64,000 bases of DNA from an uncultured Planctomycetota bacterium. GTDB taxonomy: Bacteria; Planctomycetota; Planctomycetia; Isosphaerales; Isosphaeraceae. Below the pieces are notes generated by a model. That model searched no databases and had not been told where the DNA came from. It was given only the letters and a program-made list of their open reading frames with translations. Of the stretch, positions 13,051 through 54,344 are shown in pieces. Both the position numbers and the translations under genes were made by a program. Position 1 is the first letter of the stretch. Each line of letters opens with the position of its first letter. The stretch spans positions 1,280,001-1,344,000 of the forward strand of contig CAVTTN010000002.1 in the NCBI GenBank assembly GCA_963737655.1, read 5' to 3'.

Positions 13051-13141
13051 GAGCACGCCTTTGGTCCCGCCCCGCGGATCACGGGACGGCGATCATCATA
13101 GGGGTTCCGACCAGGGCACGCCACCCCGGATGGCGGACACC

Positions 13142-15645
13142 TCAGGCATGCCCCTTCTCGACCAGGTCGATCAGCTCTCGGCCGGTCATCCGGTGGGCGG
13201 CGTCGTGGGGGCACGCGTAGACGCAGCTCGGCTCCCCGCCGAGGTCGTGGCAGAGGTCGCAGGCCGTGGCCTTCTGCTGGACCACCGCCATCATCTTCCC
13301 CGGCCGGTTCGGGTCGGGGATGCGCTCGCCGGTGGGGAACGGGTGCATGTTGATGTTGCCATACGGGCAATTCTCGGCGCACTTGCCGCAGCCGATGCAC
13401 CAGTCCTCGATGATGATCTCCAGCGAGTCCCTCCGCCGGATCGACCCCACCGGGCAGCCGACCATGCAGTACGGGTCCAGGCACGACCGGCACGAGCTGG
13501 CCACGAGGAACTTGTCGAACCTCAGCCCCTCGCGGATCAATCGCGTGACGCCGTCGTGGGCGTCGGCGCAGGCCTTGGTGCACTCGTCGCACCTCGTGCA
13601 TTTCTGGAGGTCCAGGACGAGCAGGCTGTTGGCATTCATGAGCCCCTGGCTGAGGAACTCGCCCAGGGGGAGGCTGTCGGCGCGCTCTGGGCCCGGGCGT
13701 TCTCCTCCAGCCTCTTGATCGCCTCGCGGACCAGGGGCTCGCGGACCAGGGGGAAGCGGGCGAGGAGGTCGCGGAAGTCGGCCGCGGTGATCTGGACGAG
13801 GTCCACGTGGTCCAGGGCCGAGCACGTCGCCGTCCTCAGGCCGGGAGGGGCGAGCGCGCGGACCTCGGCAACGTCGCTCATCAGCGCGATCTCGCCGAAG
13901 TAGCCGCCGGGCCCGACGTAGGTGAGGACGTGGTCTCCGCCGGGCCTCTTCTGCGAGACCTTCACGAACCCGGTGCGGACGAGGTAGAACCCGTCCTCCG
14001 AGCGATCCCCCTGGCGGAAGATGATCTCGCCCGGGTCGCGCCTGGCGAGCTTGACCGTCTTCCTCAGGTCGTCCACGAACCGGCCGAACTCCGCCTCGTC
14101 GTCGCGGATCGTCGAGAAGATGCCGACGCTCCTCAGGTGGCTGGAGATCGCCCGCTCCCGGTACTTCTCCTCCAGCTTCGCCCGGAACGCCCGGCTCCTC
14201 TGCATGATGTACAGGACGTTCCTCAGGAGCTCCAGGACGACGGTTTCCTCGGCCGCGCGGACGGTCGCCGAGCGGGGGTAGGAGTTCATGCAGGTCATCT
14301 CGCCGAAGATGTCGCCGGGCCCGAGGGTCGCGGCCGGCCTGGCGTAGGCCAGCGCCACCGGGGCGTCGATCGCGATGAACCCGCGGTCCCCCTCCCCCTC
14401 GCGCGTCTCCTCGTTGCGAGAGACCAGGTCCACCGTCAGCTTCTTCATCAGGCCGAACAGCCCGCGACCCTTCTTGCCCGCCCGGTTGCGGGCGTGACTC
14501 ATCGAGGCATTCAGATAGATATCCACCGATCCCGACTCGATCAGGAACGCCGACGAGCCGAACTCGCCTTCGCGGCAGATGATCTCGCCCTTCTTGAAGG
14601 TCCGGCGGACGATCGAGCTCTCGTTCCACCTCAGGAACGCCGGGGAGGAGCCGCGGAACGCCCGGCGGATGTCGTCGATCGGGTGGCGGATCAGCTCTTC
14701 GGCGCGGATCTTCTGAGGGGGCGGCGAGATGTCCTCCCACGGCTTGGCGACGACCGTGACCTTGTTCGTCAGGGCGCCCGTGGGGCAGGAGATCATGCAT
14801 TCGCCGCACGCCACGCACGACGAGTTGCCCATCGGGTCATCGAGATCGAAGGCGATCTTCGCCTGATAGCCCTTCTTCGCCCGGCCGATGACCTGGTTGT
14901 CGCGGATGTCGTTGCAGCCCCGGACGCAGCGATCGCAGAGGATGCAGGCGTCGTGATCGACGGCGATCACCAGCGAGGAATCGTCCTTGGGCCGGGGGGC
15001 CCGGCGGCTGAACCGGGGCGTCCCGACCTGGAATTTCGCCGCGAGCTCCTCCAGCTCGCAATCGCCGGTCTGCTTCTGCTTGGCGCAGGGGGTGGGGTGG
15101 TCGGCCATCAGCAATTCGGTGACGGTGTTGACGGCCTGGCGGACGGTCTCGGAGGTGGCCATCGTGGCCACTTCCATCGTGTCCTCGACCCGGTGCTGGC
15201 AGGCCGGCAGGAGCTTCCTCTCGGTCTGCATCTTGCCGCGCTTGACCTTCGAGATCTCGACCACGCAGACGCGGCAGACGGCCACCGGGTCCATGTGCTC
15301 GCGGTGGCAGAGGATCGGGATCGGGTTGACCGGGCTGCTGGAGGCGCGGAAGGTGGTCCCGGCGGCGAAGAGGAGGGCGGCGGCGTCGTAGATCGTCGTC
15401 GGCCGGGGGATCACCTTCCCCTCGGCGTCCTTGAGGAACGTCCCCTGGGCGTCGGTGGCGGGGACGGCCTTCTTCACGGTGATCGTCCGGCCGTCGATCT
15501 TGATCGTGACGTCGCGGTCGAGGTCCTCGGCGGTGACCTTGTCCATCCGCAGGAGGCGGCCGTCGAGGTCCCGGGAGAAGAGCCCTTCCTCCTCCTCGCG
15601 ACGGGCCACCGAGGCCGGCAGGGTGCTCATCGTCCCAACGCTCAT
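13142..15645 (-). CDS. NuoG/HoxU-like Fe-S N-terminus + two cNMP-binding domains + 4x[4Fe-4S] ferredoxin domain, with an apparent 1-nt deletion at ~13688
   Basis: ORF 13636..15645 has PILCH..CRVC..LPAC, CILCDRCVRGC, CVACGECMISCP, FGEM..YPRSATV and FGEI..LRTAT. It continues in the frame of 13142..14818 with CTRCDECTKAC, CRSCLDPYCMVGC, CIGCGKCAENC and CDLC..PSCVYAC. ATGA overlap with the upstream gene. Confidence 0.85.
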
Positions 15646-17432
15646 CGCTTCACCTCCAGGGTGCGGAGCGGGTCATCCCCGCCGACGGCCGGGCTCGGGG
15701 CGGGTCGGAACGCGGTGCGGACGTAGCCGGCCATGTCGTCTCGGAAGTTGCGGATCACCGAGCCCAGAGGATTCGCCGCGACCATCCCCAGGCCGCAGAT
15801 CGACGCCATCTCCAGGGCCTTGCGGAGGTCCGCGACCATGTCCTCCACCGGCTCCAGGCCCACCCCGTCGTACCGGCCCCCGAGGAGGTCCGTGCCGATC
15901 TCCACGAGCTTCTGCGAGCCGATCCGGCACGGGACGCACTTGCCGCACGACTCGTTGCGGAAGAACTCGGTGCAGTTCAACGCCTGGTCGGCCATGTCGG
16001 CCGAGTCTCCGTAGACGACCAATCCGCCGCCGAGCATCAGGCCGAAGTCGCGGAACGCCTGGAGGTCCAGGGGCAGGTCGAGGATGTTCAGGAAGGGCTT
16101 GTCGCCGGTCTTGCCCTGGGCCGACCTGGGGAGGTCGGCCAGGGGGATTCGCGTCGGGAGGAAGCCTCCCGAGGGGCCCGACGTCGCCACGGCCTTGAGC
16201 CTCTGGCCGGACCTCATCCCCCCGGCGTATTTGCCGATGAGCTGGCCGAGGGTCGTCCCGTTGGCGACCTCGTACACGCCCGGCCTCGCCACGTCGCCGG
16301 AGATCGAGAAGAACCGGGCCCCCTTGCAGCCGCCCGTGCCCAGGTCGCGATACCAGGCCCCTCCGTGGTGGTAGATCGCGGGGACCCAGGCGAACGTCTC
16401 GACGTTGGAAAGGAGCGTGGGCTTGTCGTACAGGCCGTTGGTCTCCAGCAGGGGCGGCTTGTTCCGGGGCTCGGCGCGCTTGTCCTCCATCGCCTCGATC
16501 AGGGCGCTCTGCTCCCCGCAGATGTAGCCTCCGGGGGAGACGAAGACCTCGATCGGGAACGATCGGCCCGTGCCGAGCAGGTCCTCGCCGCAGACGCCCA
16601 TCCGCTCGGCCCGGCCGATCGCGGCGTTCACGGCCTCGATCTGGGGCTCGTATTCGTGGCGGATGTAGACATAACCGCGCTCGGCCCCGGTGAGCAGCCC
16701 GGCGAGGATCACGCCTTCGAGGACGAGGTGGGGCGTCCTCAGCAATAATTCGCGGTCCTTGAAGGTGCCGGGCTCGCTCTCGTCGCCGTTGACGACGACG
16801 TACTTGCGGTCCCCTCGGGCCTGGCGGACGTCGTGCCACTTCTGGTGGGCCGGGACGCCCGCGCCGCCCATCCCTCGGAGGTCGGAGGCCTTGAGCTGCT
16901 CGACGAGGTTGTCGGCGTCCTTGGTCTCGACGAATTTGCGGGCGGCGGCGTATTCCTCCCGGCCTTCATACGGGTCGATCCGCCATCCGGTGCGGACCGG
17001 CTCGGCGAAGGTGGGGTCGATCCGGGAGAATGGGTCGGAGCGGCCGGTTATCGCGTCCCGGAGCAGGGCCCGGCACTCGGCCAGGGTCTTGGACCGATAG
17101 ACATGATGGCCCACCATCACCGCCGGAGCGGCGTCGCACTGGCCCAGGCACGACACCCCCTTGATCTCGACCGATTCCCCCCCGCCGAGCTCGGCGGCCA
17201 TCTCCTTCAAGGACCGGAGGTAGTCCGGGGCCCCTCGGAGGTGGCAGGCCATGTCCCGGCACACCAGGAACTCGACGTCCGGGGGCGGCTCCATCCGGTA
17301 GTGAGGGAAGCAGCTCGCCACCTCATGGAGCCGATGCAACGGCACGCTCAGCCGCTCCGAGAGCGCCTTGAGCTCCGAGGCGGGCAGGTAGCCGTTCTTC
17401 TTCTGGATCGCGTGGAGTTCTTGTTGGATCAT
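15642..17432 (-). CDS. Fused NuoE/NuoF-like (HoxF-like) FMN/NAD(P)H diaphorase subunit
   Basis: VCRDMACH..SCLGQC [2Fe-2S], LRGMGGAG, NGDESEPGTFKDR, YICGEQSAL and ESCGKCVPCR..SICGLG. Start placed at ATG 17432 because the longer ORF start lies inside a repeat. Confidence 0.9.
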   Translation of the reverse strand: MIQQELHAIQKKNGYLPASELKALSERLSVPLHRLHEVASCFPHYRMEPPPDVEFLVCRDMACHLRGAPDYLRSLKEMAAELGGGESVEIKGVSCLGQCDAAPAVMVGHHVYRSKTLAECRALLRDAITGRSDPFSRIDPTFAEPVRTGWRIDPYEGREEYAAARKFVETKDADNLVEQLKASDLRGMGGAGVPAHQKWHDVRQARGDRKYVVVNGDESEPGTFKDRELLLRTPHLVLEGVILAGLLTGAERGYVYIRHEYEPQIEAVNAAIGRAERMGVCGEDLLGTGRSFPIEVFVSPGGYICGEQSALIEAMEDKRAEPRNKPPLLETNGLYDKPTLLSNVETFAWVPAIYHHGGAWYRDLGTGGCKGARFFSISGDVARPGVYEVANGTTLGQLIGKYAGGMRSGQRLKAVATSGPSGGFLPTRIPLADLPRSAQGKTGDKPFLNILDLPLDLQAFRDFGLMLGGGLVVYGDSADMADQALNCTEFFRNESCGKCVPCRIGSQKLVEIGTDLLGGRYDGVGLEPVEDMVADLRKALEMASICGLGMVAANPLGSVIRNFRDDMAGYVRTAFRPAPSPAVGGDDPLRTLEVKR

Positions 17433-17436
17433 CTTT

Positions 17437-17526
17437 GTAGGGTGCATGAAATGCACCATCTGGAATTGGATTCCCCGGGCCGCCGTCTCGGAGGGAATCG
17501 GGATGGGCGCATTTCATGCACGTTAC
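17437..17526. repeat. GTAG-type REP-like inverted doublet, copy 1
   Basis: gtagggtgcatgaaatgcacc at 17437-17457 and a degenerate inverted copy at 17506-17526. Confidence 0.75.
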
Positions 17527-19106
17527 GGGGCACCCTTGAGGAACCTCGGGATGTCCAGCGCATCGACGTCCCTGGCCATCGACGGGCCGGGCTTGCGGTC
17601 GCCTCCGTGGTAGCGGTGGCATTCGGTGCAGGCGTGGCCGGCCCCTCCGACGGGCTGGCCCGAGGCGTCTCGGCCCGCCGGGGCGTGGCACGAGGCGCAC
17701 ACGTCCATCCTCGGCAGGAGGACGTCCGCGTTGGTCGTCGATCTCTCGAAGGCGTCCTCGTGGCACGACCGGCAGGAGACCGCCCGGTGCGCCGAGTGGT
17801 CGAAGTTCGCGTGCTCGAACCAGATCGTCGGCACGTAAGTCGGCTCGATCTGGACTCCGTCGAGAGACTGCGACAGGTCGGGCGAGGACTTGCGGCCGGC
17901 GGGGGTGTCGTAGCCGTGGCATTCGGTGCAGGTGTTGTGACCCGGTCCGAACAGGAGCTTCTCGGCCACGGCCACCCTCGCCGCGATCTCCTTCCTGGCC
18001 GAGACCTCGACGGCCGAGGACTTGCCCGGGAAGCCCCGGCGGCCGTCGTCGATCTTCCTGGCCAGGGCCGGGTCGCCCTCCAGGGTCAGGCCCAGCGAGA
18101 GGTTCGTCAGCGCCTCATGCAGGGCCGACGGTTGGAGGCGGTGAGGGACCGTCACGACCTTCGTGCCCTCGCCTTGGGGCATCGGCACGTTCAGCGCGTG
18201 GCAGGCCGCGCAATCGGCCTGATACGTGATCGGCTTGATATAGGCGCCGGTGCCGGCCAGCGGTTGATCGGCCAAAGCGAGCACGCCCGATCGGGACGAC
18301 GCCGAAGGCAGGGCGCCGTTGTCCAGCCGGTGGCACGAGGCGCATTCCAGTTGAACGGCGTCCTCGGGCTTCTTGCCCGGGGCGTACCGTTCCCTCGCCG
18401 TCGCCGACGTCAATTGCCCGGCCCGGAAGATCGGCGAGCCGCCCTGGACGGTGGTGAGGCCCGGGGCCATGTGCAAGGCGTGGTTGAACTTGAGCGTCCC
18501 GGGGTCGACCGCCGACTCCTTCCCCTGCCGGAACAGGGCGAAGGCCGGGTGATCGCCGGGGAACGAGGTCACCTTCGCCGCGAACGCGCTCTTTCCGGCC
18601 TTGGTGTGCGAGTCCAGCGCCTTGTGGCAGGAGGTGCAGTCCGAATCCTCCAGCTTCACCAGGGACGCCTCGCGCCCCCGGTGGTCGCGGTGGCAGCCGG
18701 CGCACGAGACGTCGCTCGGGTCGTTCGCCTGCTGGGCCTGGTGATGGATCTCGACCTGATGGCAGTCGAGGCACTTGAGGTCCGCGCCCTTCGTCGAGCC
18801 GCCGACGGCCTTCGTCCAGGAATCGTCGCTGATCGGATGGAAATCGACGTGGCATGCCTCGCACCGGGCGTCCCACGAGGCGTGGACGGCCGCCACCGGG
18901 CCGTGGGAGTAGCGCATCCGGGCCGAGTCGCTCTCGGCCAGGAGCCCGCGGCCGCCGGGCCTGAGCCCGCTGGCCCACCAGCCCAGGGCCGCGATCAGGG
19001 CGAGGAACGTCAGCGAGAGCTTCGCCCTCATCAGCCGGTCGGGCGTCTTGAAATAGTCCAGCGGGATTCGCGAGGCCCGCTGCTTGCCGGTCTGACGGTT
19101 CGCCAT
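17523..19106 (-). CDS. Membrane-anchored decaheme cytochrome c
   Basis: One N-terminal TM helix and 10 CxxCH motifs (CEACH, CLDCH, CAGCH, CTSCH, CASCH, CAACH, CTECH, CRSCH, CASCH, CTECH). Confidence 0.9.
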   Translation of the reverse strand: MANRQTGKQRASRIPLDYFKTPDRLMRAKLSLTFLALIAALGWWASGLRPGGRGLLAESDSARMRYSHGPVAAVHASWDARCEACHVDFHPISDDSWTKAVGGSTKGADLKCLDCHQVEIHHQAQQANDPSDVSCAGCHRDHRGREASLVKLEDSDCTSCHKALDSHTKAGKSAFAAKVTSFPGDHPAFALFRQGKESAVDPGTLKFNHALHMAPGLTTVQGGSPIFRAGQLTSATARERYAPGKKPEDAVQLECASCHRLDNGALPSASSRSGVLALADQPLAGTGAYIKPITYQADCAACHALNVPMPQGEGTKVVTVPHRLQPSALHEALTNLSLGLTLEGDPALARKIDDGRRGFPGKSSAVEVSARKEIAARVAVAEKLLFGPGHNTCTECHGYDTPAGRKSSPDLSQSLDGVQIEPTYVPTIWFEHANFDHSAHRAVSCRSCHEDAFERSTTNADVLLPRMDVCASCHAPAGRDASGQPVGGAGHACTECHRYHGGDRKPGPSMARDVDALDIPRFLKGAP

Positions 19107-19134
19107 GAGCGGCCCTCGGACTGTCTCGATCCGG

Positions 19135-20112
19135 TCAGAGATAACGCAAGGCGACGACGATATGGACGAACATCAACGCGATCAGGGCCACCGACAGCGG
19201 CAGGTGGACGAGCAGCCAGTTGTGGAGCCAGAAGTGGAGCCGTTCCTGGCGGTCGAGCTGGCGGCGCTGCTCACACAGGCCCTCCATCGCGTCGATGGCC
19301 GGGTGGGCCCGGGGGTCCACCTTCGTCTTCAGGTCGGCGAACATGGCCGAGGCGCGGTCGGGGCGGCTCAGGGGCGAGCGCCCGAATCCTTCGTGATGCA
19401 GGAACGGCCCGGCCGTGGTCTCGAAGAACGATCGGAGGGCCTCGGAGTTGGCGATGGCCTCGCCGGCCGATCGCGTCTGGAGGACCTTGCCGCTGATCTT
19501 CCCCGCCGAGCGGACCGCGCCGACGACGAGATGGACCGTCCGGGGGTCGGCGTCGTCCTCGTCTTCCTCGGGGGTCGGCTTCCCGGGCACGGCCTCGGCC
19601 TTGCCGCAGGTGGCCTGGACCAGCCGGGTCGCTTCCTCGTGGTAGTGGCCGATGATCCGGGGGATCTGGGAGTGGATCGTCTCGGCCGGGATGTCCGCCA
19701 GCATGGTCTTCGGCAGGAGGTTCTGGAGCGCCAGGCCCCAGACCCCGCTGGCGATCACCACGAGGAACAATGCCATCAGGACCGTGCTGAGCGAGCCGCC
19801 CCACCGGAACCCGCTGTGGAGGACCAGGATCGGCAGGCTGAGCAGGCCGAGCCAGATGTGGGCCTTCATCCAGACCTTCACCCGCCCGAGCCGCCAGACC
19901 CTCAGCTTCTTCCTCGGCCAGAGGAGGAACTCGAACAGGCAGATCAGCCCGCCGATCACCCCGAAAGTGAACCCCGGCAGGCTCCCGCCGCCCAGGAAGC
20001 GAGACCGGGCGAGGCTCGCCACGGCGTACCAGAGCGTGGCGCCGAGGGTCGCCAGCGACGCGAATGCGAACCAGGCCCGATGGCCCTTCCAGTGCTCGGA
20101 ATCGATCAGCAT
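19135..20112 (-). CDS. Integral membrane protein, ferric-reductase-like putative di-heme b domain
   Basis: About 5 TM helices, with two His pairs each separated by 13 residues (AHIWLG..VLHSG and VHLPLS..FVHIV). Confidence 0.75.
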   Translation of the reverse strand: MLIDSEHWKGHRAWFAFASLATLGATLWYAVASLARSRFLGGGSLPGFTFGVIGGLICLFEFLLWPRKKLRVWRLGRVKVWMKAHIWLGLLSLPILVLHSGFRWGGSLSTVLMALFLVVIASGVWGLALQNLLPKTMLADIPAETIHSQIPRIIGHYHEEATRLVQATCGKAEAVPGKPTPEEDEDDADPRTVHLVVGAVRSAGKISGKVLQTRSAGEAIANSEALRSFFETTAGPFLHHEGFGRSPLSRPDRASAMFADLKTKVDPRAHPAIDAMEGLCEQRRQLDRQERLHFWLHNWLLVHLPLSVALIALMFVHIVVALRYL

Positions 20113-20321
20113 CGCCGGAAACGTCCCCCTCGGGGCGCCCTCGCCCCGTCATCGGGCCGTCGCGATCGGCAGGCCCCGCAGAACTCGCCCCCCGATCGTA
20201 GCGAAATTCCGGCGGAAGCCAACGGTTTACCCCCGGTTCCTTGATTTTCGGCCCGGAGGGGGGCATCTTCAGAGATATCGAACCGGCCGATGACGGCCGA
20301 GTCCCCGGGGAGGGTCCGGTC

Positions 20322-21749
20322 ATGAGGCGAGTCTCAACCGTCGGCGGCGCCCTGACCGGCGCCTCGGCCCTGGCCACGATCTGGCTGGTCTTCGGGCCGC
20401 GTCCCACCCCCGCGAGCCCTCCCCCGGTCGGACCGACGAACGCCCCGGTCGCCGCGGGCCCGAAATTCGTCCCCCGAGGGGCCGGCTCGTGCGCCGCCGC
20501 CGCCTGCCACGGCTCGGCCACGTCGCTACCGTCATTCTCGAACGTCTTCCGCAACGAGCACACTACCTGGATCACCCGAGACCCCCACTCGCGGGCCTAC
20601 GAAGTCCTCAGCGATGAGCGGTCGCTGTCGATCGCCCGGAACCTGGGCAACGGCCGACCGGGCGGCCGCGTGATTGCGCCGTCCGAAGACGCCCGCTGCC
20701 TGGCCTGCCACTCCACCCCTTCGGCGACGACCGCCGCCTTGGGCGACGCCGCGGACGTGATCCGTCGCGACGGCGTCGGGTGCGAGTCTTGCCACGGGCC
20801 CTCCAGCGGATGGCTCAGCGAGCACACCCGGGCCGATTTCGTGGGACTCTCCGGCGAGGTCAAGCACGACCAGTTCGGCCTGAACAACCTGAAAAACCCG
20901 ATCGTTCGCGCGAAGACCTGCACCGGCTGCCACGTCGGCGCCCCGGAGGGAGACGGCCTCCCCCTGCGAGACGTCAATCACGACCTGATCGCCGCCGGCC
21001 ACCCCCGGCTCGACTGGGAGTTCTCGGCCTACGTGGCGAACTACCCCAAGCACTGGACCACCGCGAACGACCCGCCGGACTGGGACGCCCGGCTCTGGAA
21101 GATCGGCCAGGTTGAGACCCTCCGCGCCGCGACCGACCTCCTCAACGCCCGGGCCGAGGCCGCCGAGGCCCACAAGGCCCCCTGGCCCGAATTCGCCGAA
21201 TATTCCTGCTACAGCTGCCACTTCGCCCTGAAGGACAAGCCGTTCAAGGTCGGCCTCGACCCGCAGACGCCCCCCGGGATGCCCGCCTGGGGCTCGTGGA
21301 CGACTCCTTTGATCCCGCCTCTCGCGAAGCTCTCCGCCGGACCCGCCCCATCGGCCGACGAGCGGCTGAATGACCTCCGAACCGTCATGAAGACCTTCGG
21401 CGCGGAGCCCAAGATCGCCGCCGAGAAGGCCCGATCGACCCGCGACGCCCTCTCGGCCTGGCTGGCGACCCTCCCGAACGCCCCGCTGACCGCCCCCGAG
21501 ATCAAGACGCTGATCGCCGCCCTCGACGCCAGGGACGCTGCCGGACGACTCGCGCTGGTCCACCGATGGGACTCGGCCGCGCAGGTCTATCTCGGCCTCG
21601 CCGCCCTGAATGTGTCGCTCCAGAAGCTCGACCCGAACGCCGTCGATCCCAAGCTCCGGGCCGAGCTGAAGGAACTCCTCGGAAAGCTCAGCTTCGCCAA
21701 GGGGTTCGACAGCCCCCGGGATTTCAACCCGTCGGCGCCGAACCGTTAG
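20322..21749 (+). CDS. Pentaheme cytochrome c (c554-like N-terminal domain)
   Basis: N-terminal hydrophobic segment, CAAAACH, CLACH, GVGCESCHGP, CTGCH, CYSCH and HDLIAAGHP. Confidence 0.85.
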   Translation: MRRVSTVGGALTGASALATIWLVFGPRPTPASPPPVGPTNAPVAAGPKFVPRGAGSCAAAACHGSATSLPSFSNVFRNEHTTWITRDPHSRAYEVLSDERSLSIARNLGNGRPGGRVIAPSEDARCLACHSTPSATTAALGDAADVIRRDGVGCESCHGPSSGWLSEHTRADFVGLSGEVKHDQFGLNNLKNPIVRAKTCTGCHVGAPEGDGLPLRDVNHDLIAAGHPRLDWEFSAYVANYPKHWTTANDPPDWDARLWKIGQVETLRAATDLLNARAEAAEAHKAPWPEFAEYSCYSCHFALKDKPFKVGLDPQTPPGMPAWGSWTTPLIPPLAKLSAGPAPSADERLNDLRTVMKTFGAEPKIAAEKARSTRDALSAWLATLPNAPLTAPEIKTLIAALDARDAAGRLALVHRWDSAAQVYLGLAALNVSLQKLDPNAVDPKLRAELKELLGKLSFAKGFDSPRDFNPSAPNR

Positions 21750-21920
21750 GCCGCCCCCCTCGATTCGGGAGGTCTCGGACGCCGGGGAGGAAGCCGGATG
21801 CTCGGCCAATCGCCGTGCCGGTCCTTCTTCATGAGGTCGGCGACGATCGCACGGAGATCGTCGTTGAACGACCGGCCTTGAAGATCGCGCCGCCCGGACT
21901 TCCTTCAAGACGTCATCCGC
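21746..21920 (-). pseudogene. Degenerate remnant of a small DxxxxEVRxxR...FxxDLxAIxxDL...LPPRRP protein
   Basis: The minus strand reads DDVLKEVRAAR, then after a frame change DLQGRSFNDDLRAIVADLMKKDRHGDWPSIRLPPRRP...TAA. There is no in-frame start. Confidence 0.4.
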
Positions 21921-24483: not shown

Positions 24484-25019
24484 ACCGCCAAGACGCCAAG
24501 ATCGCCAAGGGAAGAGGAGAGGAGAACGCGTTTACTTCTGGGGGTTTCGATGAGCCTTTCCGAAAATCCTGCTCTCCGGACCGAGCCGGATGAAGAACTG
24601 GACGCCCTGGCCCATGCGGTCATCGGCGCGGCCATCGAAGTCCATCGGCATCTCGGTCCGGGCTACCTGGAGGGCGTTTACGAGGACGCCCTGGCTGTCG
24701 AATTCGGCCTGCGTGGCATCGTCTTCGAGCGGCAGAAACCGATCGCCGTCGAGTTCAAGGGGGTCCCCGTCGGTGAGGGTCGGCTCGATTTCCTCGTCGA
24801 AGAGCGTCTGATCGCCGAATTGAAGGCCGTCGAGGAACTGGCGCCGATCCACCGCGCCCAGGTCCTCTCCTATCTCCGAACGACCGGGCCGAGCCTCGGC
24901 CTGCTGATCAACTTCAACGTCACAACCCTGAGGAACGGGATCAAGCGAGTGATCCTCTCCTGATCCTCCTCTCCTCTTCTCTCGTCTTTCCTTGGCGCCC
25001 TTGGCGTCTTGGCGGTTCA
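24481..25019. mobile_element. Putative inverted-repeat-bounded element carrying a GxxExxY gene
   Basis: Perfect 20-bp IR TGAACCGCCAAGACGCCAAG at 24481-24500 and 25000-25019. Each end has three CGCCAAG units and a purine (left) or pyrimidine (right) tract. Confidence 0.65.
24550..24963 (+). CDS. GxxExxY protein (PD-(D/E)xK nuclease-like fold)
   Basis: VIGAAIEVHRHLGPGYLEGVY, RLDFLVE..IAELKAV, AQVLSYL and GLLINFN. 137 aa. Confidence 0.95.
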   Translation: MSLSENPALRTEPDEELDALAHAVIGAAIEVHRHLGPGYLEGVYEDALAVEFGLRGIVFERQKPIAVEFKGVPVGEGRLDFLVEERLIAELKAVEELAPIHRAQVLSYLRTTGPSLGLLINFNVTTLRNGIKRVILS

Positions 25020-25039
25020 CCTTTCCCGGACGATCCACG

Positions 25040-27120
<2,081 letters not shown>

Positions 27121-27124
<4 letters not shown>

Positions 27125-27528
27125 ACCCGCTCGGGACGATCCGCTCGAGGCCGGCCGGTCCCCGCCGATCGCGTCGCAAGACGGTCACGATCGGCGGGAT
27201 GCTCCTGATCGTCGCCCTGTCGGCGGCGGGGCTGAGGCTCCTCCGGGCGATCCTCCCTCTGACCGCATCCCAGGCCGCCCGGGTCGCCCGCGAGGAGGTC
27301 TCCCGGCGCGACCCGGCCTTCGCCGCCGACGCCCAGGTCGTCCAGGTCGCCCCCCGAGAGGAGACCGCCGGCAGGCCGTGGAACTGGGCCTACCGCTGGG
27401 AGGTCGTCCTGAGGGGCCGCGACGCCCCGACCGGGTACTTCGTCGAGATCGACGGCCGCGAAAACGTGAAGGTCGGCCTCGCCTACGACATCCGCCCCGG
27501 CCACTGGTCCTACGACGAGCCGCGATGA
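27121..27528 (+). CDS. Small hypothetical protein with one TM helix
   Basis: ATGA overlap with the tkt stop. A basic stretch is followed by TIGGMLLIVALSAAGL. This is the 3' end of ORF 26200..27528. Confidence 0.6.
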
Positions 27529-27559
27529 ACCCGAACCCGATCGAGAAACGGCACGACGC

Positions 27560-28231: not shown

Positions 28232-28255
28232 TCTCCCGTCCAGAAGGAGGATGTC

Positions 28256-28906: not shown

Positions 28907-28935
28907 TCGGGATCAAAATCTCAGGAGATGCTGTC

Positions 28936-29961: not shown

Positions 29962-29966
29962 GAGAT

Positions 29967-30150
29967 TGAACCGCCAAGACGCCAAGTTCGCCAAGGGCAG
30001 AGGAGAGGAGTAGAGCGGGAAGAAATGAGAAACACAGATTAGATCGGATGAGAATTTAACTCGATTTGCAAATCCGCTGATTTGCGCGCTGAATTCTTAC
30101 TCTTCTCCTCCTCTCCTCTCCCCTTGGCGGACCTGGCGCCCCGGCGGTGA
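29967..30150. mobile_element. Gene-less (MITE-like) copy of the GxxExxY-type element
   Basis: The left end TGAACCGCCAAGACGCCAAG (29967-29986) is identical to 24481-24500. The core is AT-rich and the inverted right end is degenerate (ctcctctccccttggcggacctggcgccccggcggtga). Confidence 0.7.
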
Positions 30151-30185
30151 GTCCGATTCCCCATCCACCAGTCGGAGCCCAGAGA

Positions 30186-35299: not shown

Positions 35300-35462
35300 C
35301 ACAATCCGGGCGGAAAAAGCCGCGCACTCCGCCCGGATTGTCGCTATGACCTGGAGACACCGGGTATACTTGGCGCCCTCCCCCCCGGCGAAGCCCGCCG
35401 TTCGCCGGCCTCGGGCCGTCGGGGGAACGGGGTTCGCCCGGCCCGTCGGCGGGGGTTTCGTC

Positions 35463-36230
35463 GTGAAGGTCCAGCTCCTCCCATCCACGGTCTCTCCCGA
35501 CGGCGAGGCGAGCCAGTACCTCACGTCGTTCCTGATCGGCGAGTCCGTGGCGATCGACGCCGGCAGCCTCGGCATCTACGGGATGCCCGACCAGCAGGCC
35601 AGGGTGCGCGACGTCTTCCTGACCCATACCCACATCGACCACGTCGCCACCCTGCCGATCTTCCTGGAAAACGTCTTCGAGGTCGGCGGCGATTGCGTGA
35701 CCGTCCACGCCACCGAGCCCGTCCTGGACTGCCTCCGCCGCGACATCTTCAACGATCGCGTCTGGCCCGACTTCTTCCGGATCGGATCGGCCGGCAACCC
35801 GTTCCTCCGGGTTGAAATCCTCCGGCCCGGCCGGGCCGTCCAGGTCGATGGGCTGAAGATCACCCCGGTCGAGGTCGATCATCTCGTCCCCACCGTCGGC
35901 CTGATCGTCGAAGGGCCGGGCTCGGCCGTCGTGATCGCCGGAGACACCGGGCCGACCCAGGAGATCTGGGACCGCGCCAACGCGATCCCGTCGCTCAAGG
36001 CCGCGTTCCTCGAATCGGCCTTCCCCGACGAGATGGCCTGGCTGGCCGACGCCTCCAAGCACCTGACCCCCGAGCGGTTCGCCGGGGAGGTCCGCAAGCT
36101 CCGGCCCGGCGTCAGCGTCTTCGCCATCCACATCAAGCCGAAATATGTGGAATCGATCGGCCGGGAGCTGGCCCGGCTCGGCCTCTCCGACGTCCAGATC
36201 TGCCGGCCCGGCCGGACGTACTCATTCTGA
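35463..36230 (+). CDS. Metallo-beta-lactamase-fold 3',5'-cyclic-nucleotide phosphodiesterase (class II-like)
   Basis: IDAG, LTHTHIDH, IFNDRVWPDF, GDTGPT, ESAFP, HLTP and IHIKP motifs. Confidence 0.8.
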   Translation: MKVQLLPSTVSPDGEASQYLTSFLIGESVAIDAGSLGIYGMPDQQARVRDVFLTHTHIDHVATLPIFLENVFEVGGDCVTVHATEPVLDCLRRDIFNDRVWPDFFRIGSAGNPFLRVEILRPGRAVQVDGLKITPVEVDHLVPTVGLIVEGPGSAVVIAGDTGPTQEIWDRANAIPSLKAAFLESAFPDEMAWLADASKHLTPERFAGEVRKLRPGVSVFAIHIKPKYVESIGRELARLGLSDVQICRPGRTYSF

Positions 36231-36305: not shown

Positions 36306-37835
36306 ATGCCCGAGCGATCGTCCGCCGGTCGGATCGTCCCGATCGCGTCGTTAGCGGCGGCATTGTCGGCCATCGGCCTCGTCGCCATCGGCCGGGGGGA
36401 GCCGCCGAGGCCGCCCCAGGACCCGCCCGCGCCGAAGGCCGGCGCCCCCGCCCCGAAGCCGAACAAGGATTGGTACGCCGTCAAGCAGTGCGGGGCCTGC
36501 CACCGGCCGGGCAAGGGGGAGGAGGTCACCAGCTTCGTCCGTCTCGACGAGATCAACATCTGGCGAGACCTGGACAAGCACAGCAAGGCGTTCACCAACC
36601 TCGACCCGAAGACCAACGAGAAATCCCGGAGGATGGCCGACCTCCTCGGCTGGGACCTCCAGAAAGACGGCCGCTGCCTGAGCTGCCACGCCCCCGCCTT
36701 CGACGCCCCCAAGGCGAAGGAGAAACCCGAGCTGGTGACCGAGGGCGTGAGCTGCTCCGGCTGCCACGGGCCGGATGATCGCTGGATTCGCGAGCACGGG
36801 TTCGGCCAGGAGGACTGGATCAAGAGGACGGCCGCCGACAAGTTCCGGAACTGGGGGATGAACGACCTCCGCGACCCGGCGGTGAGGTCCGCCATGTGCG
36901 CCTCGTGCCACGTCGGCGACGCCTCGCAGGGCCGGGTGGTCACCCACGAGATCTACGCCGCCGGCCACCCGCCCCTGCCCGGCCTGGAGGTCTCGTTCTT
37001 CAGCGAGGCCGAGCCGCCCCACTGGTGGCCCATGAAGGACGTCCCGTACCTCAAGAACAAGCCCGAGGCGCTGAAGAATCAGTACGGGATCGATCAGGCC
37101 GCCACCCAGCACGCGAAGCTCGTGGCCGTGGGCGGGGTGGTGGACCTCCGCGAGTCGATGACGCTGTTCGCCGACACCGCCAAGCCGGGCGCCATGCCCG
37201 ATTTCGCCCGGTTCGATTGCGCCTCATGCCATCACGAGCTCAAGGAGTCGCGCGACTCGTGGAGGCAGGCGTTCGGGTTCCCGGCCGAGCCCGGGCGGCC
37301 TCCGTCGGCGCACTGGCCGGCGGCCCTGGCGAGGATCGGCATCGCCGCCGGAGACCCGGCGCAGGCCGCCTCCCGGACCAGGGACCTGGACGACGCCCTG
37401 GCCGCCTTCCGCCAGGCCGTCGGCGACCGCCCGTTCGGCGACGACTCGAAATCGGTCGCCGCCGCCCGGAAGCTCGCCTCCTGGGCCGACGGGCTGGCCA
37501 AGGCCCTGGACTCGCAGAAGTTCGACCGCGCCTCGGCCCTGAGGATGCTCCGCAAGATCGCCGAGACCGAGCCCCGCGATTATGCCTCGGCCCGCCAGCT
37601 CGTCTGGGGCTTCCGCTCGATCCTGAAGGAGATGGACGACAAATCCCCGGACGCCCAGGAGGTCGCCCACCTGATCGACGGCCTGATGCTCCAGCTCGGG
37701 ATCAACCTGATCCCCCGGGCCGACGGAGGCATCGAACGGGCCCTCGGAGCCCGCCTCGAAGCCGACGACAGGTACGACCCAGCCAGCTATCACCAGACGA
37801 TGGACGACATCGCGAAGCGCTTGAACAACCTGTAG
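36306..37835 (+). CDS. Pentaheme cytochrome c, paralog of 20322..21749
   Basis: Signal/TM segment, CGACH, CLSCH, GVSCSGCHGP, CASCH, CASCH and HEIYAAGHP. Confidence 0.87.
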   Translation: MPERSSAGRIVPIASLAAALSAIGLVAIGRGEPPRPPQDPPAPKAGAPAPKPNKDWYAVKQCGACHRPGKGEEVTSFVRLDEINIWRDLDKHSKAFTNLDPKTNEKSRRMADLLGWDLQKDGRCLSCHAPAFDAPKAKEKPELVTEGVSCSGCHGPDDRWIREHGFGQEDWIKRTAADKFRNWGMNDLRDPAVRSAMCASCHVGDASQGRVVTHEIYAAGHPPLPGLEVSFFSEAEPPHWWPMKDVPYLKNKPEALKNQYGIDQAATQHAKLVAVGGVVDLRESMTLFADTAKPGAMPDFARFDCASCHHELKESRDSWRQAFGFPAEPGRPPSAHWPAALARIGIAAGDPAQAASRTRDLDDALAAFRQAVGDRPFGDDSKSVAAARKLASWADGLAKALDSQKFDRASALRMLRKIAETEPRDYASARQLVWGFRSILKEMDDKSPDAQEVAHLIDGLMLQLGINLIPRADGGIERALGARLEADDRYDPASYHQTMDDIAKRLNNL

Positions 37836-37976: not shown

Positions 37977-40900
37977 TCAATGTGCCGGCCTCGGTGCCGG
38001 ATAGTCCCTCGGGTCGTCGGAGACCTTCCAGACCTGCCCGGCCCTCATGTACAGCCTCTTCATCTCCTCGGCGTTCAGGGGCCTGGCGCCGACCCGGCCG
38101 AACACGCCGATCTGATTGCCGGACTCGTCCACCGCCCGATCGCGATCGACGCCCTTGGAGATCGCCAGGGCGTGGCCGTGGTGGGGGATCTCGTACGTGG
38201 CGATCAGTTGAGGAGTGGGCCTCGGGCTGAACCCCATGTTGCCGGGCGTCTCGGGCGAGGTGAGCTGGACGACCCTCATCCCGTTCTTGCCGTCGGCGAG
38301 GTAGGCGAACTCGCTCGAATACGTGATGCCCAGCTTCACGTCGTGGAGGTCGTTGATGCACCCCCCGGCGTTGAACACCTGGTCCACCCTCGGCTGCAAC
38401 GGGTTCTCGATGTCCAGGATCACCAGGCCCTGCTTGCCCGCCGCCACGTAGGCATAGGTCCGGGCGAGATAGATGTTGTGGGCGTCGTCCATCGGCAGCG
38501 ACGCCACCGGGGTCGGCCGTGCCAGGTCGGTCACGTCGAAGACCTTGATCCCCTCCTCGTCGCAGGCGAACCCGTAGCGGAACTGGACCTGGAACGCGGT
38601 CGGGTGCTTCAGGACCTCCTCGCCGACGATCGACGTGACCCTCGGCTTCTTCGGGTCCTCGATCGAGACGACCACGAGCCCGGCGTTGCAACTGATGTAG
38701 GCATACGTCCCGGCGATCGAGATCGCCCTCGCCCCGCAGAGGATGCCCCCGGGGTTGAACGTGGTCTCCCTCTCGATGAAGTTGTTCAGGGGGTTGCCGT
38801 CGAGCAGCGTCCCCGCCGGGACGGTGATCAGCCCTTCCTCGCGGTCGGTCACGTACAGATATCCATACATGCCGGCCACGGAATCCTCGTGGTTCTCGGG
38901 CTTGTGGGTGCGCGTCGGGTCGGGGGCGGCGGTGGCGGGCGAGGCCACGGCGGTGGCGTACTTCGTCCTCACGTAGAACTTCTGGCCCATCGGCGAGAAC
39001 GGCGCGGTCACGATCCGCTCGGAGAAGCCCTTGTGGTCGATGAACGCCACGTCGAACACGCGGAGGCCGTTCTCCCCGCACGCGGCGTAGAGGTACTCGC
39101 CCCTCAGCTGCAAATTGAGGATCTCCGGCCTCTTGAACCGGGCCTTGAGGTTCTCCGCGATGTCGATGCCCGGGTGCTCGTGTGCGTGCTCCAGGAGCCC
39201 GCCCTTCCGGACGTGTTCGCGGAAGTTGTCCGGGAACGCGATCTTCTGCAACGAGCTGCCGAGGACCGCCTGGGGCTCCTCGCGCTCGGTGACGACCACG
39301 CCGAGGAAGCCCTCCTCGCCGGCCGCGACCCAGCAATACTTGCCGATGAAGTTCGTGTAGTTCGTGCCTTGCATGAGCAGCTTGCGCCATGATGGCGTTG
39401 TTGTCCTCACGCGCCGAGACGTGGCAATCCGAGCACTGCTTCGTCTCGTTCCGGCCCGGGAGGTAGTTCTCGGGGTGGAGGGCCCGGCCCTTGTCGGGGC
39501 CGTTCTTGATCAGGGTCGGCCCCCCTCGGACGGTGTGGGGGACGTTCGTGCTGAAGGCGATCCCGCTCATCCCCTCGGCCGAGATCGTCTGCTGCTGGAC
39601 GTAGATCGACTCGCGATTGGCGTTGTAGCTGCCGACGTGGATGGCGCAGCTGGACCTCGCCGGGTTGATCCGGTTGCCGGTGGCGTTGCCGTCCCGCCCG
39701 AGCATGAACACGTCGTCGCGCAAGGTCTGGAAGTTATACGCCGTGTAATTGCGCGAGACGTCGCCTTCATTGTGGAGCGCCGGCATCTTCCGGTTGGCCC
39801 TCTGGGGGAGGTGGCAGCCGAAGCAGCTCGGGTTCCACGACGAGTGGCAGGCGATGCACGACATCTTCGTGTCGGAGTGGGCCATGTCCTTCTCGCAGCC
39901 CGAGGGGACGTCGCCCCACTCGAACCCGCCGCCGGCCGCGACCCGGACGGTCTTGGCCAGCCGGGATTTCTCGTTGTAGTGGCCGCTGGCCGGATCGACC
40001 GTGTCGGCCGTCTGGACGACCTCCCAGGCCAGGTCCGGCTCGACCATCGAATTCTGATACAAGCGGCCGTCCCGGACCTCGAACCGCCTCCGGCCCGAGG
40101 GCGTCCGCAGGGCCCGGAGGTTCCGGCCGTTGGGGCCGCTGGTGTACGAGGCCGGGCCGCTGGTCATCAGCGTGGTCTTCCGGTCCGCCGTCCCGTGGCA
40201 GTCGATGCACTGGATCTCGATGGCCGCGCGGACCTCGCCCTGCAGACGATTGTTGCCGTGCATGTCCTGGACGTAGTGGCAATCGACGCAATGCATGCCC
40301 TTTTCCATGTGGATGTCCATCAGGTGGACGGGCACGCCGTCGCGGTTCGGCGGCGGGGTCTTCGCCGCTCCGGGGCGCTCGCGGTACTGCTCGCGGACGG
40401 CCTCGGGCATCTTGATCGACGCCATCAACTGCTCGGTCGAGGCCGGCTCGACCGACCGGCCCTCGCTGTCGAGCATCTGGCCGTGGCGGTCCTTCTTGAA
40501 GACGGCGCGGAAGACCCAGCCGTGGCCGTGGAAGTCGGCGAACTGGGTGTGGCGGGCCTGCGGGTTCAGGTCGGCCACGCGCTCCAGGAACCTCGGGTTG
40601 GACCACAGCCCCCGGGCCGCCGCCTCGTCGGGGTTGGACATCTGCGACTGCACGAACTCCTCGGCCGTCGGGTGCTTCTGCTCCTTCGGATACATCAACT
40701 CGCCGTCGGTCTCCTCGTCCCACCACGTATAGCCCACATACGAATTCATGACCGTCGTGCCGGGGTGAATATGACACACCATGCACTGACTCGTGGGGAT
40801 CGAGCTGGTGAATTTATGCTCGATCGGGTGGCCCTTCTCGTTCTTCGGGATCGTGGGGTCGGGGTTCCTCGTCAGGCCGAGGTGACCGGCGGAGGCATAC

Positions 40901-41943
40901 GGCCCGGAGTGCACGGGCGAGCGGTCATTCGCGTAGACGACGTGGCAGGCGGTGCAGCCGCTGGAGCGATAGTCGCCGGGGTGGTCGTTCGTGCCGAGGA
41001 AGTTGAGCGTGGGGTCGAGCAATCGCGTCTTGGTCAGGCTGACGAACACCGGGTCGGTGCGGTTCTTGGTGCCGAACCCTCGCTCGGAGAGGCCGCCCTT
41101 GGGCTTGCCGGGGTCGGCGAACGGGTTGGGCAGGCCGACCTCGCCGATCATCCCCCGGCCCCTCTCGAACGTCCTCAGGGTGTTGCCCGGCTGGCTCGCC
41201 TCGAAGTGGGGCAGGGGGTCGAGGAAGTCCAGGACGCCCTTCTTCTCGCGTTCCCAGTCGCTCGGCGGGGGGACCGTCTGGATCCGCTGGGGGGTGCCGT
41301 TCATGCTGTAGCTCTCGCCGAAGTGGCTGGCCTTCAGCGGGTACGACCCGTTGTTGTACAGGGCCGCGCCCCAGAGCATGGCCCCGTGGGTCATCATGCT
41401 CTTGCGATTTTGCATGACTTCATTCGGATGGCAATTCGTGGTCCCGCAACTGATGTGGGCGATTCGGAAGTCCCCCGGGTTGATGAACCGGACGAACTCG
41501 GGGGACTCGTGGTTCATCAGCGTATAGGTGCGCACCGGGTTGGCGGAGCCGGCCCAGGAGGCGGGATACCTCGCGGCGACGTGGGCGAGGCCCTTGTCGG
41601 CGGCGGAGGCGTCGCCGCCGTGGCAGTCCGTGCAGCCGAGGCGGACGGTGTCCTTGGCGTGGGGGTCGTGCGATCCGGCGTGGCAGTTGACGCACCCCTG
41701 GCTCTTGGCGGCGACCATCTCGGGCGCCTGGCCGGAGAGGTCGATCCCGCGGAGCTCGGCCGGCATGGGGAACGCCTCGACCGGCCGGGCGACGACCGGA
41801 GTGGGCCCGGGGCCGGGGACCTGGGCGCGGAGCCTCGTCGGCCGGGTGCCGATCGAGACGGCCGCGATCGCCCCGAGGATCAGGGCGAGGGCCGCCAGGG
41901 CGGACGCGGCGCGGAGGCGTCGGGGGGGGAGGGGCGTCGCCAT
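37977..41943 (-). CDS. Large exported multiheme cytochrome c with a C-terminal LVIVD-repeat propeller, with an apparent 1-nt insertion at ~39382
   Basis: Signal from MATPLPPRR, 9 CxxCH plus CGTTNCH. Removing one base joins NAIMAQ to LLMQGTNY (ORF 37977..39410), which has YAYVAAGKQGLVILDIENP-type repeats. Confidence 0.85.
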
Positions 41944-52361: not shown

Positions 52362-54344
52362 TCAGAACGCGATGTTGGCGTTCAGGAACCCGGCGACCAG
52401 GGCCGGGACGCGGTCGGAGAAGTTGTTGTAGAGGTCCCGGAAGCCCTGGCCGGGGATCAGGGTCGAGACGCCGATGATGAACGAGACGTTGTCGCTGACC
52501 AGGGGCTTGTACTCGAAGCCGGTGGAGAGGTCCGCCCCGATGAAGCGGTTGATGTGGCCGTCGAACAGGAAGTGCTCGAGGACGTTGGTGGCGTCGAAGT
52601 AGAGCAGGTTGAAGTTGTTGAACATCTTGAGCTTGGGCGTGAGGTCCAGGTCGAACCCGAGGGTCGGCAGCAACAACCCCGGGTTGACGAAGTTCGCCTG
52701 GCCCTGGATCTTGCTGGAGCGGAGGTCCGGCACGAGGCTGAGCCTCTGCACCAGGTTCGCGCCGAACAGGGGGATCTGCTGGCGGTTCCAGAAGCTGAAC
52801 GGGCCTCCGGCGAAGTTCGGGGCGTCGAGGATCGAATCGAAGCCGGTGGCATGCGAATTGTTGATGTTATGATCGCCCGATGAGTAGAAGAACGACGCCC
52901 GGAACCGGACCCAGTCGCGATCGTACGAGGCCTCGATCGCGGCCATCTGGGCGTTGATCGTCTGCGCCTGGTTGGCCAGGGGGTTGAGGCTGTCCCGGCC
53001 GAAGGCCCAGTAGAACTGGTGGGTGAGGTTATACCGGCCGATGTGGCCGTCGCCCGCCCAGCCGAAATAGCCGACGTTGACCGAGTGGGGCTGGAACACG
53101 CCCACCGGGTCGGGCCGGACGAGGAAGCGGTTCTTGTCGTACTTGATCGACCTGGGGTCGTTGTTATACGTGAAGCTGATCTGGGCGGTATAGCCGGGGA
53201 AGATGAAGTCCTGGCGATAATAGTTCAGGAATATGAGCGTCTGCTTGCGGTCGTTGAACGTGTTCAACGCCGTGTTGGTGTCCTTCTCCCACTGGCGGAA
53301 GTAGGCGACGTTCCACTGGTCGCGGTTGCCGTTGCGGGTGCCGAAGAAGCGGACGGCCCGGTTGATGTCCGCGAAGAGGAAGCCGCGGAAGTCGGAGATG
53401 AACGGCTGGTTGCCGACCCGGACGGAGGTGAAGTCGTACTCGGTGCTGGTGTCGGCCAGCTTCATCTCGAGGAACGCCTCCTGCAAGGCCCAGAACTCCC
53501 GGGTCCGGGCGGTGCCCTGGAGGACGTTCGGGCTGACGATCCCCCGCTCGCTGAACGAGAAGTTGCTCACGCCCAGGGTCGGCGCGATCTTGATCCGCCA
53601 GTCCACCGGCTTGAACGCGCCGTCGCCGTGGAACAGGTCGAAGGACAGGGAGAAGAAGTCGAGGTTGATGATCGAGCTGTTGCGGCCGAAGAAGTTCTGC
53701 TCATTCGGGCGGGCGGTGCTCTCGAACCCGCCGGAGGCCGGCGTGGGGATCGACCTGGGCTCGATGAACAGGATGGCCGAGCCCGAGACGTCCAGGAACG
53801 TGTGCTGGCCGAGGATCGGGTAATCGCCCTTGAACACGTTCTGGTTGAACGGGTCGATCTTCCGGCCGGGGACGTAGGGGTATTCGTCGAGCAAGGGGTG
53901 GCCCTTGCCGTAGCGGTCCCACTCGGGGAAGCCCAGCCTCCAGCGGTCCTCGATCGGCACGAAGTCGTCGGAGGCCTGCCCCTCGCTCGGCATCACGCCC
54001 GAGGGCCCGGTGTAGCCGATGGGCGGGTCCATTTTCGTGCGGAAGAACGGGCCGGGCATGCGGAAGGCATTGGGCGGAGGCGGGGGCGCGGGGACCGGGG
54101 CTTCGGCGTCCAGGGGGCGGCGGAGGGCCGGGGGCCTCGGCGAGTCGTCCTCGACCGACGGGCCCGGCATCGGCCGAGGAGACGGCGAGGATGCGGGCGG
54201 GGCCGAGGGCGGGACCTCGACGATCGCCGGGGGCAAGGGCGGGGAGTCCTGGCCCCGGGACCGGGACCCGGAGGCGACCAGAAAGGCCGCCGCGGCCATC
54301 GCGGCGACCCGGCCTCGCCGGCTCGGGCTGGTAAACGGCGGCAT
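52362..54344 (-). CDS. Putative outer-membrane beta-barrel protein
   Basis: Signal peptide, Pro-rich linker, aromatic-rich alternating strands (WALQEAFLE, SVRVGNQPF, YNLTHQFYWAFG) and a C-terminal Phe (FLNANIAF). Confidence 0.75.
   Translation of the reverse strand: MPPFTSPSRRGRVAAMAAAAFLVASGSRSRGQDSPPLPPAIVEVPPSAPPASSPSPRPMPGPSVEDDSPRPPALRRPLDAEAPVPAPPPPPNAFRMPGPFFRTKMDPPIGYTGPSGVMPSEGQASDDFVPIEDRWRLGFPEWDRYGKGHPLLDEYPYVPGRKIDPFNQNVFKGDYPILGQHTFLDVSGSAILFIEPRSIPTPASGGFESTARPNEQNFFGRNSSIINLDFFSLSFDLFHGDGAFKPVDWRIKIAPTLGVSNFSFSERGIVSPNVLQGTARTREFWALQEAFLEMKLADTSTEYDFTSVRVGNQPFISDFRGFLFADINRAVRFFGTRNGNRDQWNVAYFRQWEKDTNTALNTFNDRKQTLIFLNYYRQDFIFPGYTAQISFTYNNDPRSIKYDKNRFLVRPDPVGVFQPHSVNVGYFGWAGDGHIGRYNLTHQFYWAFGRDSLNPLANQAQTINAQMAAIEASYDRDWVRFRASFFYSSGDHNINNSHATGFDSILDAPNFAGGPFSFWNRQQIPLFGANLVQRLSLVPDLRSSKIQGQANFVNPGLLLPTLGFDLDLTPKLKMFNNFNLLYFDATNVLEHFLFDGHINRFIGADLSTGFEYKPLVSDNVSFIIGVSTLIPGQGFRDLYNNFSDRVPALVAGFLNANIAF

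Follow-up and report, generated by a model that had tools for sequence, protein, structure and literature searches.

The analysed stretch of DNA (64,000 nucleotides, hereafter the window) carried on its minus strand a 669-aa open reading frame (15645-13636) in which Pfam recognised the Fer2_4, NADH-G_4Fe-4S_3, Fer4_Nqo3 and cNMP_binding (121 bits) domains, and a separate frame on the same strand (13714-13142) encoding a 16-Cys four-cluster domain. Upstream of this gene and on the same strand lay a NuoE-NuoF fusion, a decahaem cytochrome and a membrane protein, and a c554-like cytochrome gene was divergent (Table 1). The domain layout agreed with the first-pass annotation of the sequence. The NuoG-like N-terminus with a [2Fe-2S] and two [4Fe-4S] clusters was confirmed by the Pfam domains and by structural alignment of a homologue model; the two cNMP-binding domains with intact phosphate-binding motifs were present with both pockets as claimed, and the C-terminal domain contained the Cys residues for four clusters. 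The annotation does not say outright that the two parts occupy different frames, and it leaves unmentioned the operon with its NuoEF input, membrane protein and decahaem output, the relation to PCC4/ptd, and the occurrence of the missing Cys throughout the family at an off-path site.

Table 1. Features of the cNMP-domain Fe-S gene, its operon and its companions in the window
Feature	Coordinates	Strand	Basis or remark
Whole gene: NuoG/FdsA-like N-module, two cNMP domains, four [4Fe-4S] motifs	15645-13142	-	
NuoG/FdsA/HydA-like N-terminal module: [2Fe-2S], degenerate His-ligated site, 2x[4Fe-4S]	14767..15645	-	Pfam and model alignment
Degenerate His-ligated cluster site H-x3-C-x8-C, Gln for second Cys	15058..15099	-	Homologue comparison
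cNMP-binding domain A, ~55-aa insert, conserved Cys in pocket helix	14176..14685	-	Boundaries approximate
cNMP-binding domain B	13711..14160	-	Sequence and model match; boundaries approximate
One-base frame break in linker	13680..13700	-	Homologue comparison, GC3, background frameshifts
C-terminal four-[4Fe-4S] domain, HydN/DmsB-like, 16 Cys	13142..13690	-	Pfam and motifs
NuoE-NuoF fusion, FMN/NAD(P)H module	15642..17459	-	Pfam, FMN and cluster motifs; 4-base overlap with next start
Membrane-anchored decahaem cytochrome c, PtdG-like	17523..19106	-	10 CxxCH; one hydrophobic segment, residues 30-48
Inner-membrane protein, PCC4 IMP/PtdF-like, predicted dihaem b	19135..20112	-	Two WX3HX13H and SGxxG
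Divergent c554-like cytochrome	20322..21749	+	4 CxxCH and one Cx4CH
Class II phosphodiesterase-like metallo-beta-lactamase	35346..36230	+	PDEase_II 30.6 bits, cut-off 23.7; true start probably further downstream
Second c554-like cytochrome, 5 CxxCH	36306..37835	+	Haem motifs
Large multihaem/LVIVD-repeat cytochrome, frame-shifted near 39383	37980..41730	-	Homologues in 33/84 and 34/80 loci
Alginate-export-like predicted beta-barrel	52365..54344	-	Homologues in 26/84 and 22/80 loci

Near position 13690 the gene had one base fewer than the intact homologue of a genome of the same genus (G001), and GC3 changed frame at the same place. The protein was whole in 118 of the best 120 homologues (lengths of 367-1171 were searched), the exceptions being the window protein itself and P0002, and in 63 of 75 genome loci; five further loci were split at differing sites and seven were truncated or stand-alone. 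Whole genes were present, for example, in Tautonia sociabilis GM2012 and Sphingobium herbicidovorans MH. The two halves thus belong to a single polypeptide, as had been annotated, and are not separate genes in all homologues. When 66 open reading frames of the assembly were compared with G001, 33 passed the coverage filter and 9 of these (27%) showed a frame change. Because of this background and of the 118 whole homologues, the break is most likely an assembly error and not biology. A break that is real in the strain, whether as a pseudogene, a pair of interacting proteins or programmed frameshifting, would agree with the break in the same linker of P0002, which matches the nearest relative (G002), but seems highly improbable: in G002 the shift is to the other frame and affects every one of the five operon genes, and the gene of G001 is whole. 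A programmed frameshift was ruled out, since the breaks fall in different frames (G002) and at different sites (the five split loci).

The cluster and pocket motifs were compared across other genomes, using 62 full-length proteins. Every one of the 16 C-terminal Cys was invariant, as were the eight Cys of the two N-terminal [4Fe-4S] clusters, the pocket Gly and Arg of both cNMP domains and the Glu of pocket A; the Glu of pocket B was found in 61 of the 62. The motifs are thus far beyond chance. In a more distant sampling (50% clustering, 148 representatives), the Arg of the pocket was kept in 128 of 140 proteins for domain A and in 112 of 139 for domain B.

The HxxxCxxCxxxxxC site, annotated as short of one Cys, indeed reads HPTPCAKQKQTGDC and lacks the second Cys. 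At this position 118 close homologues had Glu (74), Gln (26), His (14) or Ala (1), three being unmatched, and the two remaining Cys were kept in just 15 and 14 of the 65 distant representatives covering the site. A strain-specific loss was therefore ruled out, the second Cys being replaced family-wide. The AlphaFold model of the whole homologue P0003 (pLDDT 85.4, pTM 0.80) contained parts resembling NuoG/Fdh/Hyd modules as well as PKA/PKG tandem CNB domains, and aligned with R. capsulatus formate dehydrogenase (Z 20.8, rmsd 2.3, 216 aligned residues) and with HydABCSL (Z 21.3, rmsd 1.7, 214 aligned residues). In the formate dehydrogenase, the His-ligated cluster A4 is described as lying outside the Mo-to-FMN path A1-A2-A3-A5-B6 (PMC7171172). 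The family-wide loss of Cys and the position of A4 in this aligned structure suggest that the His-ligated site is a relic of the whole family, off the electron path. The wire would follow the branch that otherwise runs to the catalytic domain, which is here replaced by the two cNMP domains and four clusters.

Both cNMP domains showed the pocket signature Gly-Glu...Arg-x-Ala together with the CNB fold. Pocket A consists of FGEMTCMNSYPRSATV at 14307-14260 (GEMTC..YPRSAT) and pocket B of FGE...(insert)...RTATC at 13899-13822, and unusual inserts occur in both domains. The best sequence matches of the pair were Bcy1 (E 9e-15) and PKG, and domain B of the P0003 model superimposed on CNB-B of PKG II (Z 19.1, rmsd 2.2, 145 aligned residues). 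Structural matches of the model also included HcpR, DNR and 8jsk (CNB fold). A Pycsar-like defence effector was ruled out, because 8jsk shares the common CNB fold alone and the operon context is one of redox genes. The Cys in the helix of pocket A (GEMxC, 14307-14260) was kept in 121 of 139 distant representatives and is a possible redox or metal site.

The operon was followed across 84 loci (9 relatives and 75 genomes, with titles mostly of Planctomycetota and Acidobacteriota, many of the loci truncated), in which NuoEF was found 74 times, the membrane protein 73, the decahaem cytochrome 70 and the c554-like gene 63 times. The 75 genome loci are biased to the NuoG type, because the more diverse alignment was too variable for a locus search. 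The downstream glgX was near 0 of the 84 loci and so does not belong to the system. A search of 12900-21900 yielded no sigma-70 promoter-like site, and two further NuoF copies occur elsewhere in the genome. At one locus (L133, G023:C36) the operon lies in two blocks ~20 kb apart, with a cyclase adjoining the cytochrome/membrane half. A subunit of complex I, of a formate dehydrogenase or of a hydrogenase was ruled out by the lack of a catalytic domain and of the corresponding partners.

In the membrane protein, H85, H99, H303 and H317 sit in two helices and were invariant in 68 aligned sequences; the WX3HX13H pair and SGxxG were present in 68 of 70 copies. The protein is therefore predicted from its sequence to carry two bis-His b haems. 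Its model (pLDDT 88.9) gave no Foldseek match at E<=0.001 and resembled generic helical bundles only (Z<=9.6), and no sequence match was found among solved structures; the homologue from Sphingobium showed a weak match to Ni_hydr_CYTB (E 1e-4).

About half of the 148 representatives possessed the NuoG module, and 67 had the core (two cNMP domains and the four-cluster domain) without NuoG, some with FHA. In P0202, a single chain combines NuoE, NuoF and NuoG with the cNMP2-4x[4Fe-4S] core. The core of Sphingobium herbicidovorans has a FAD/NAD(P)H domain at its N-terminus in place of the NuoG module and is followed by homologues of the membrane protein (28%) and of the decahaem cytochrome (24%). 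The electron input to the core is thus interchangeable, being either NuoEF-G or a flavoprotein. Four acidobacterial loci (L103, L105, L108 and L114) encode the core without the NuoG module, and the listed open reading frames of three of them included no flavoprotein gene nearby; these loci count against a universal NAD(P)H input. Other fusions to the core involved NUDIX (P0175) and FHA (P0142, P0151). G029 encodes an NDH-2-like flavoprotein (L129:9712-11370) that has a cNMP-binding domain at its C-terminus, precedes a class III cyclase and is divergent from the core gene; it is a candidate for a second cNMP-regulated redox enzyme.

Putative genes for making and degrading cyclic nucleotides were found linked to both types of loci. 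At flavoprotein-type loci, an Rv0805/CpdA-like metallophosphoesterase adjoined the decahaem gene in 62 of 80 cases and in 55 of the 55 loci with at least 6 kb of downstream sequence; these 80 loci are closely related (62-95% to a single query) and not independent. The best solved relatives of this enzyme were Rv0805 (E 3e-23) and then GpdQ (E 3e-20), and its NCBIfam matches were SpdA and CpdA, both below cut-off. A cyclase was present at four of the 80 loci, in one of them (L199) inside the operon. At the 84 NuoG-type loci, class III phosphodiesterases were absent and class II phosphodiesterases were found three times. The class II phosphodiesterase-like gene of the window, 20 kb away, is the single copy in its genome and scores far below the NCBIfam cut-off. 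Its homologues lie inside the cluster or no more than 25 kb off in G002, G004, G008, L061 and L063, and at a distance or on other contigs in G001, G021, G024, G029 and G039. In G004, cyclase, operon and class II phosphodiesterase form one block.

The core occurred in 14 of 41 related genomes, and in six of the 14 a class III cyclase was encoded within 25 kb. For comparison, a proximity of ~1-2% would be expected by chance (two cyclase matches in a 7.6-Mb genome), although the related genomes are not independent. In the remaining genomes, the cyclase was 73 kb away (the window genome), on another contig as an orthologue (four genomes) or represented by weaker matches on other contigs with none better (G028 and G033), and the core-bearing G010 had no cyclase match. 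The GAF-class III cyclase of the window genome (L125:7559-9386; G000:C2 ~1219.5-1221.4 kb) is frame-shifted twice. The same cyclase type also occurred in G005, G019, G027, G034 and G036, five genomes that gave no match to the core. Among the 75 genome loci, a cyclase was near 6 of the 24 planctomycete loci and 3 of the 51 others.

The specificity sites of the linked cyclases differed between lineages. Planctomycete cyclases mostly had Asp at the Lys site of adenylate cyclases and Gly at the second site; the first site was otherwise Asn, Thr or Gly in single copies, and Lys in L053. Three acidobacterial neighbour cyclases had Lys/Thr. The best solved match of the linked cyclase was Cya2 (2W01), in which Glu488 aligned with the Asp and the KYG motif was the same, and the second was the Lys variant of Cya2. 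Cya2 is described as a guanylate cyclase that the E488K exchange converts to an adenylate cyclase (PMC5995499), and the guanylate-cyclase specificity pair is given as Glu-Gly (PMC4215837). Given the Asp/Gly sites and the match to Cya2, cGMP is the likely ligand in those planctomycetes that have the Asp/Gly cyclase; where the linked cyclase has Lys/Thr, cAMP is likely. The GTP specificity of the Asp/Gly cyclase itself is a guess, as its Asp differs from the Glu of Cya2. GAF-class III cyclases with Asp/Gly, often adjoining a Ser/Thr kinase, formed a family in planctomycetes that is a candidate for a new group of bacterial guanylate cyclases.

The intact pockets and the linked cyclase and phosphodiesterase genes provide good, if indirect, support for true cNMP binding by the two domains. 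The annotated idea that such binding brings the Fe-S modules together or moves them apart is a hypothesis. Alternatively, the domains might bind a nucleotide or another ligand for assembly, stability or localisation, with electron flow being constitutive. CRP/FNR-family domains of the cNMP fold are known to sense other ligands, and the HcpR and DNR matches and the inserts of both domains would suit such a role. We consider it rather improbable, as the family as a whole retains Gly, Glu and Arg in the pockets, and genes of cyclic nucleotide turnover are linked.

Further genes of the window may belong to the same system. The multihaem/LVIVD-repeat cytochrome, the alginate-export-like barrel and an HbpS-like protein (54591-56992; homologues in 20/84 and 13/80 loci) lie 16-35 kb away, and this trio accompanies both the NuoG-type (84) and the flavoprotein-type (80) loci. 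It may constitute the far end of the chain, the barrel being a candidate for the outer-membrane exit. The trio is kept from acidobacteria to Sphingobium. Between the operon and the companion cluster (22750-32947) lie genes which we take, from their motifs, to be pentose-phosphate-like (transaldolase/isomerase-like, transketolase, RpiA, and 6-phosphogluconate and glucose-6-phosphate dehydrogenase-like); related genes were found near a few other loci, and this cluster could be a source of NADPH. Large repetitive proteins, probably secreted, are encoded at 36-5981, 42292-46851 and 47798-52219, the latter two apparently having near-identical stretches in common.

With the gene, its motifs and its linkage as observed, we propose a cNMP-gated conduit from NAD(P)H to the periplasm, possibly gated by cGMP in planctomycetes, and place roughly even confidence in this reading of the sequences. 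Electrons would pass from NAD(P)H through FMN and the [4Fe-4S] cluster of NuoEF to the [2Fe-2S] cluster and then, leaving the degenerate His site aside, through the two [4Fe-4S] clusters of the N-module to the four C-terminal [4Fe-4S] clusters. From there they would cross the membrane by the pair of b haems predicted for the membrane protein to the decahaem cytochrome and leave it towards the c554-like or the companion cytochromes. The tandem cNMP domains, resembling those of PKA/PKG, would change shape on binding and thereby open or close one hand-over, either between N-module and C-terminal domain or between C-terminal domain and membrane protein. Such control would be of benefit, as electrons flowing outward would cost the cell both NADH and membrane potential.

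The same parts could instead form a signal integrator and not a metabolic valve, the redox state of the wire tuning cNMP affinity or shape with output to FHA/kinase signalling. The fusions of FHA to the core (P0142, P0151), the GAF domain of the linked cyclase, a Ser/Thr kinase near 8 of 84 loci and the widely kept Cys of pocket A are consistent with this explanation. It nevertheless appears unlikely, since the protein contains no output domain, and seven predicted clusters, two b haems and ten c haems fit flux better than sensing.

To our knowledge, cAMP and cGMP affect bacterial respiration mainly via transcription factors. In the literature searched, mainly papers that need no subscription, neither a cNMP-gated Fe-S chain nor the NuoEF-G version of the PCC4/ptd system was found. 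If the gated conduit is true, a second messenger would directly control the valve through which planctomycetes, acidobacteria and sphingomonad-like bacteria of soils and waters export electrons. This would provide a regulatory logic for PCC4/ptd clusters and point to a new bacterial cGMP receptor. More broadly, and only tentatively, we suggest that transmembrane redox chains of this kind form a widespread bacterial class, in which a cyclic nucleotide bound within the Fe-S wire itself acts directly as the switch. Each would be a self-contained signalling-redox module of cyclase, phosphodiesterase, receptor wire, dihaem b protein and decahaem cytochrome, with interchangeable NAD(P)H inputs and with cGMP as the ligand in planctomycetes.

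Comparison with known systems revealed several likenesses. The N-module and NuoEF have the fold and cluster motifs of the NuoEFG/FdsABG/HydABC/HoxEFU diaphorases. However, the window system has no molybdopterin, H-cluster or NiFe partner, its His site is degenerate, and two cNMP domains and the four-cluster domain stand in place of the C-terminal molybdopterin-like or H-cluster domain of NuoG/FdsA/HydA; NCBIfam scores were far below the cut-offs. The cNMP pair has the same pocket residues as the tandem CNB-A/B domains of PKA/PKG but is flanked by Fe-S domains instead of a kinase and differs by its long inserts and its pocket-helix Cys. In the NOX5/FRE type of transmembrane NAD(P)H oxidoreductase, electrons enter by a flavin and cross the membrane by two haems, with a sensor for a second messenger as the switch. 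To these the proposed conduit would be alike in logic only, as input module and sensor differ and no match of the membrane protein to their fold was found.

The closest likeness, drawn from architecture and gene linkage, is to PtdE, PtdF and PtdG. The ptdABCDEFG cluster is described as encoding a cNMP-binding protein with 4Fe-4S (PtdE), a ferric-reductase-like PtdF and a decahaem PtdG, with tetra- and penta-haem genes nearby and the cNMP domain given as an annotation only (bioRxiv 10.1101/2023.11.21.568154). The window likewise combines a cNMP Fe-S protein, a membrane protein and a decahaem cytochrome, but here the cNMP protein includes a fused NuoG-like module, NuoEF takes the place of the PtdC FAD/NAD(P) oxidoreductase, four C-terminal cluster motifs are present where the preprint reports two clusters, and the operon has no porin gene. 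The available text of the ptd description proposes no cNMP control and mentions no cyclase or phosphodiesterase. PCC4 is characterised by an inner-membrane protein with two WX3HX13H motifs and SGXXG, by 4-, 5- and 10-haem cytochromes and by an Fe-S gene adjoining the membrane protein (He et al. 2017, PMC5566968). The window membrane protein has both motif types and an adjoining decahaem cytochrome, as in PCC4 subgroup II. A 4(+1)-haem cytochrome is adjacent and a 5-haem one lies 15 kb further; by haem count they are possible counterparts of the PCC4 tetra- and penta-haem genes. No porin gene adjoins the operon, and the alginate-export-like barrel 33 kb off may or may not correspond to the PCC4 porin. 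The term 'cyclic nucleotide' is absent from the main and supplement text of the PCC4 paper as available. For PCC4 and ptd together, the literature offered two genomic descriptions and no experiments.

PCC4 has been modelled as conducting inward to quinone without an NADH module, whereas NuoEF-G is present in the window. Since PCC4 was found in Fe(II) oxidisers (PMC5566968) and NuoEF-type modules are known to be reversible, the same conduit and gate might work in the inward direction, with donors in the periplasm or outside the cell (Fe(II), Mn(II) or reduced humics) passing electrons through the decahaem cytochrome to NuoEF, which would reduce NAD(P)+. This direction is also unlikely in our opinion: reduction of NAD+ from c-type haems is usually uphill, the operon contains no coupling subunit, and the host titles are mostly of planctomycetes and acidobacteria. 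The outward, cNMP-gated conduit remains our preferred reading of a system that shares the PCC4/ptd core but lacks PtdC and the adjacent porin, and which is for this reason a variant of PCC4/ptd with NuoEF-G replacing the flavoprotein input.
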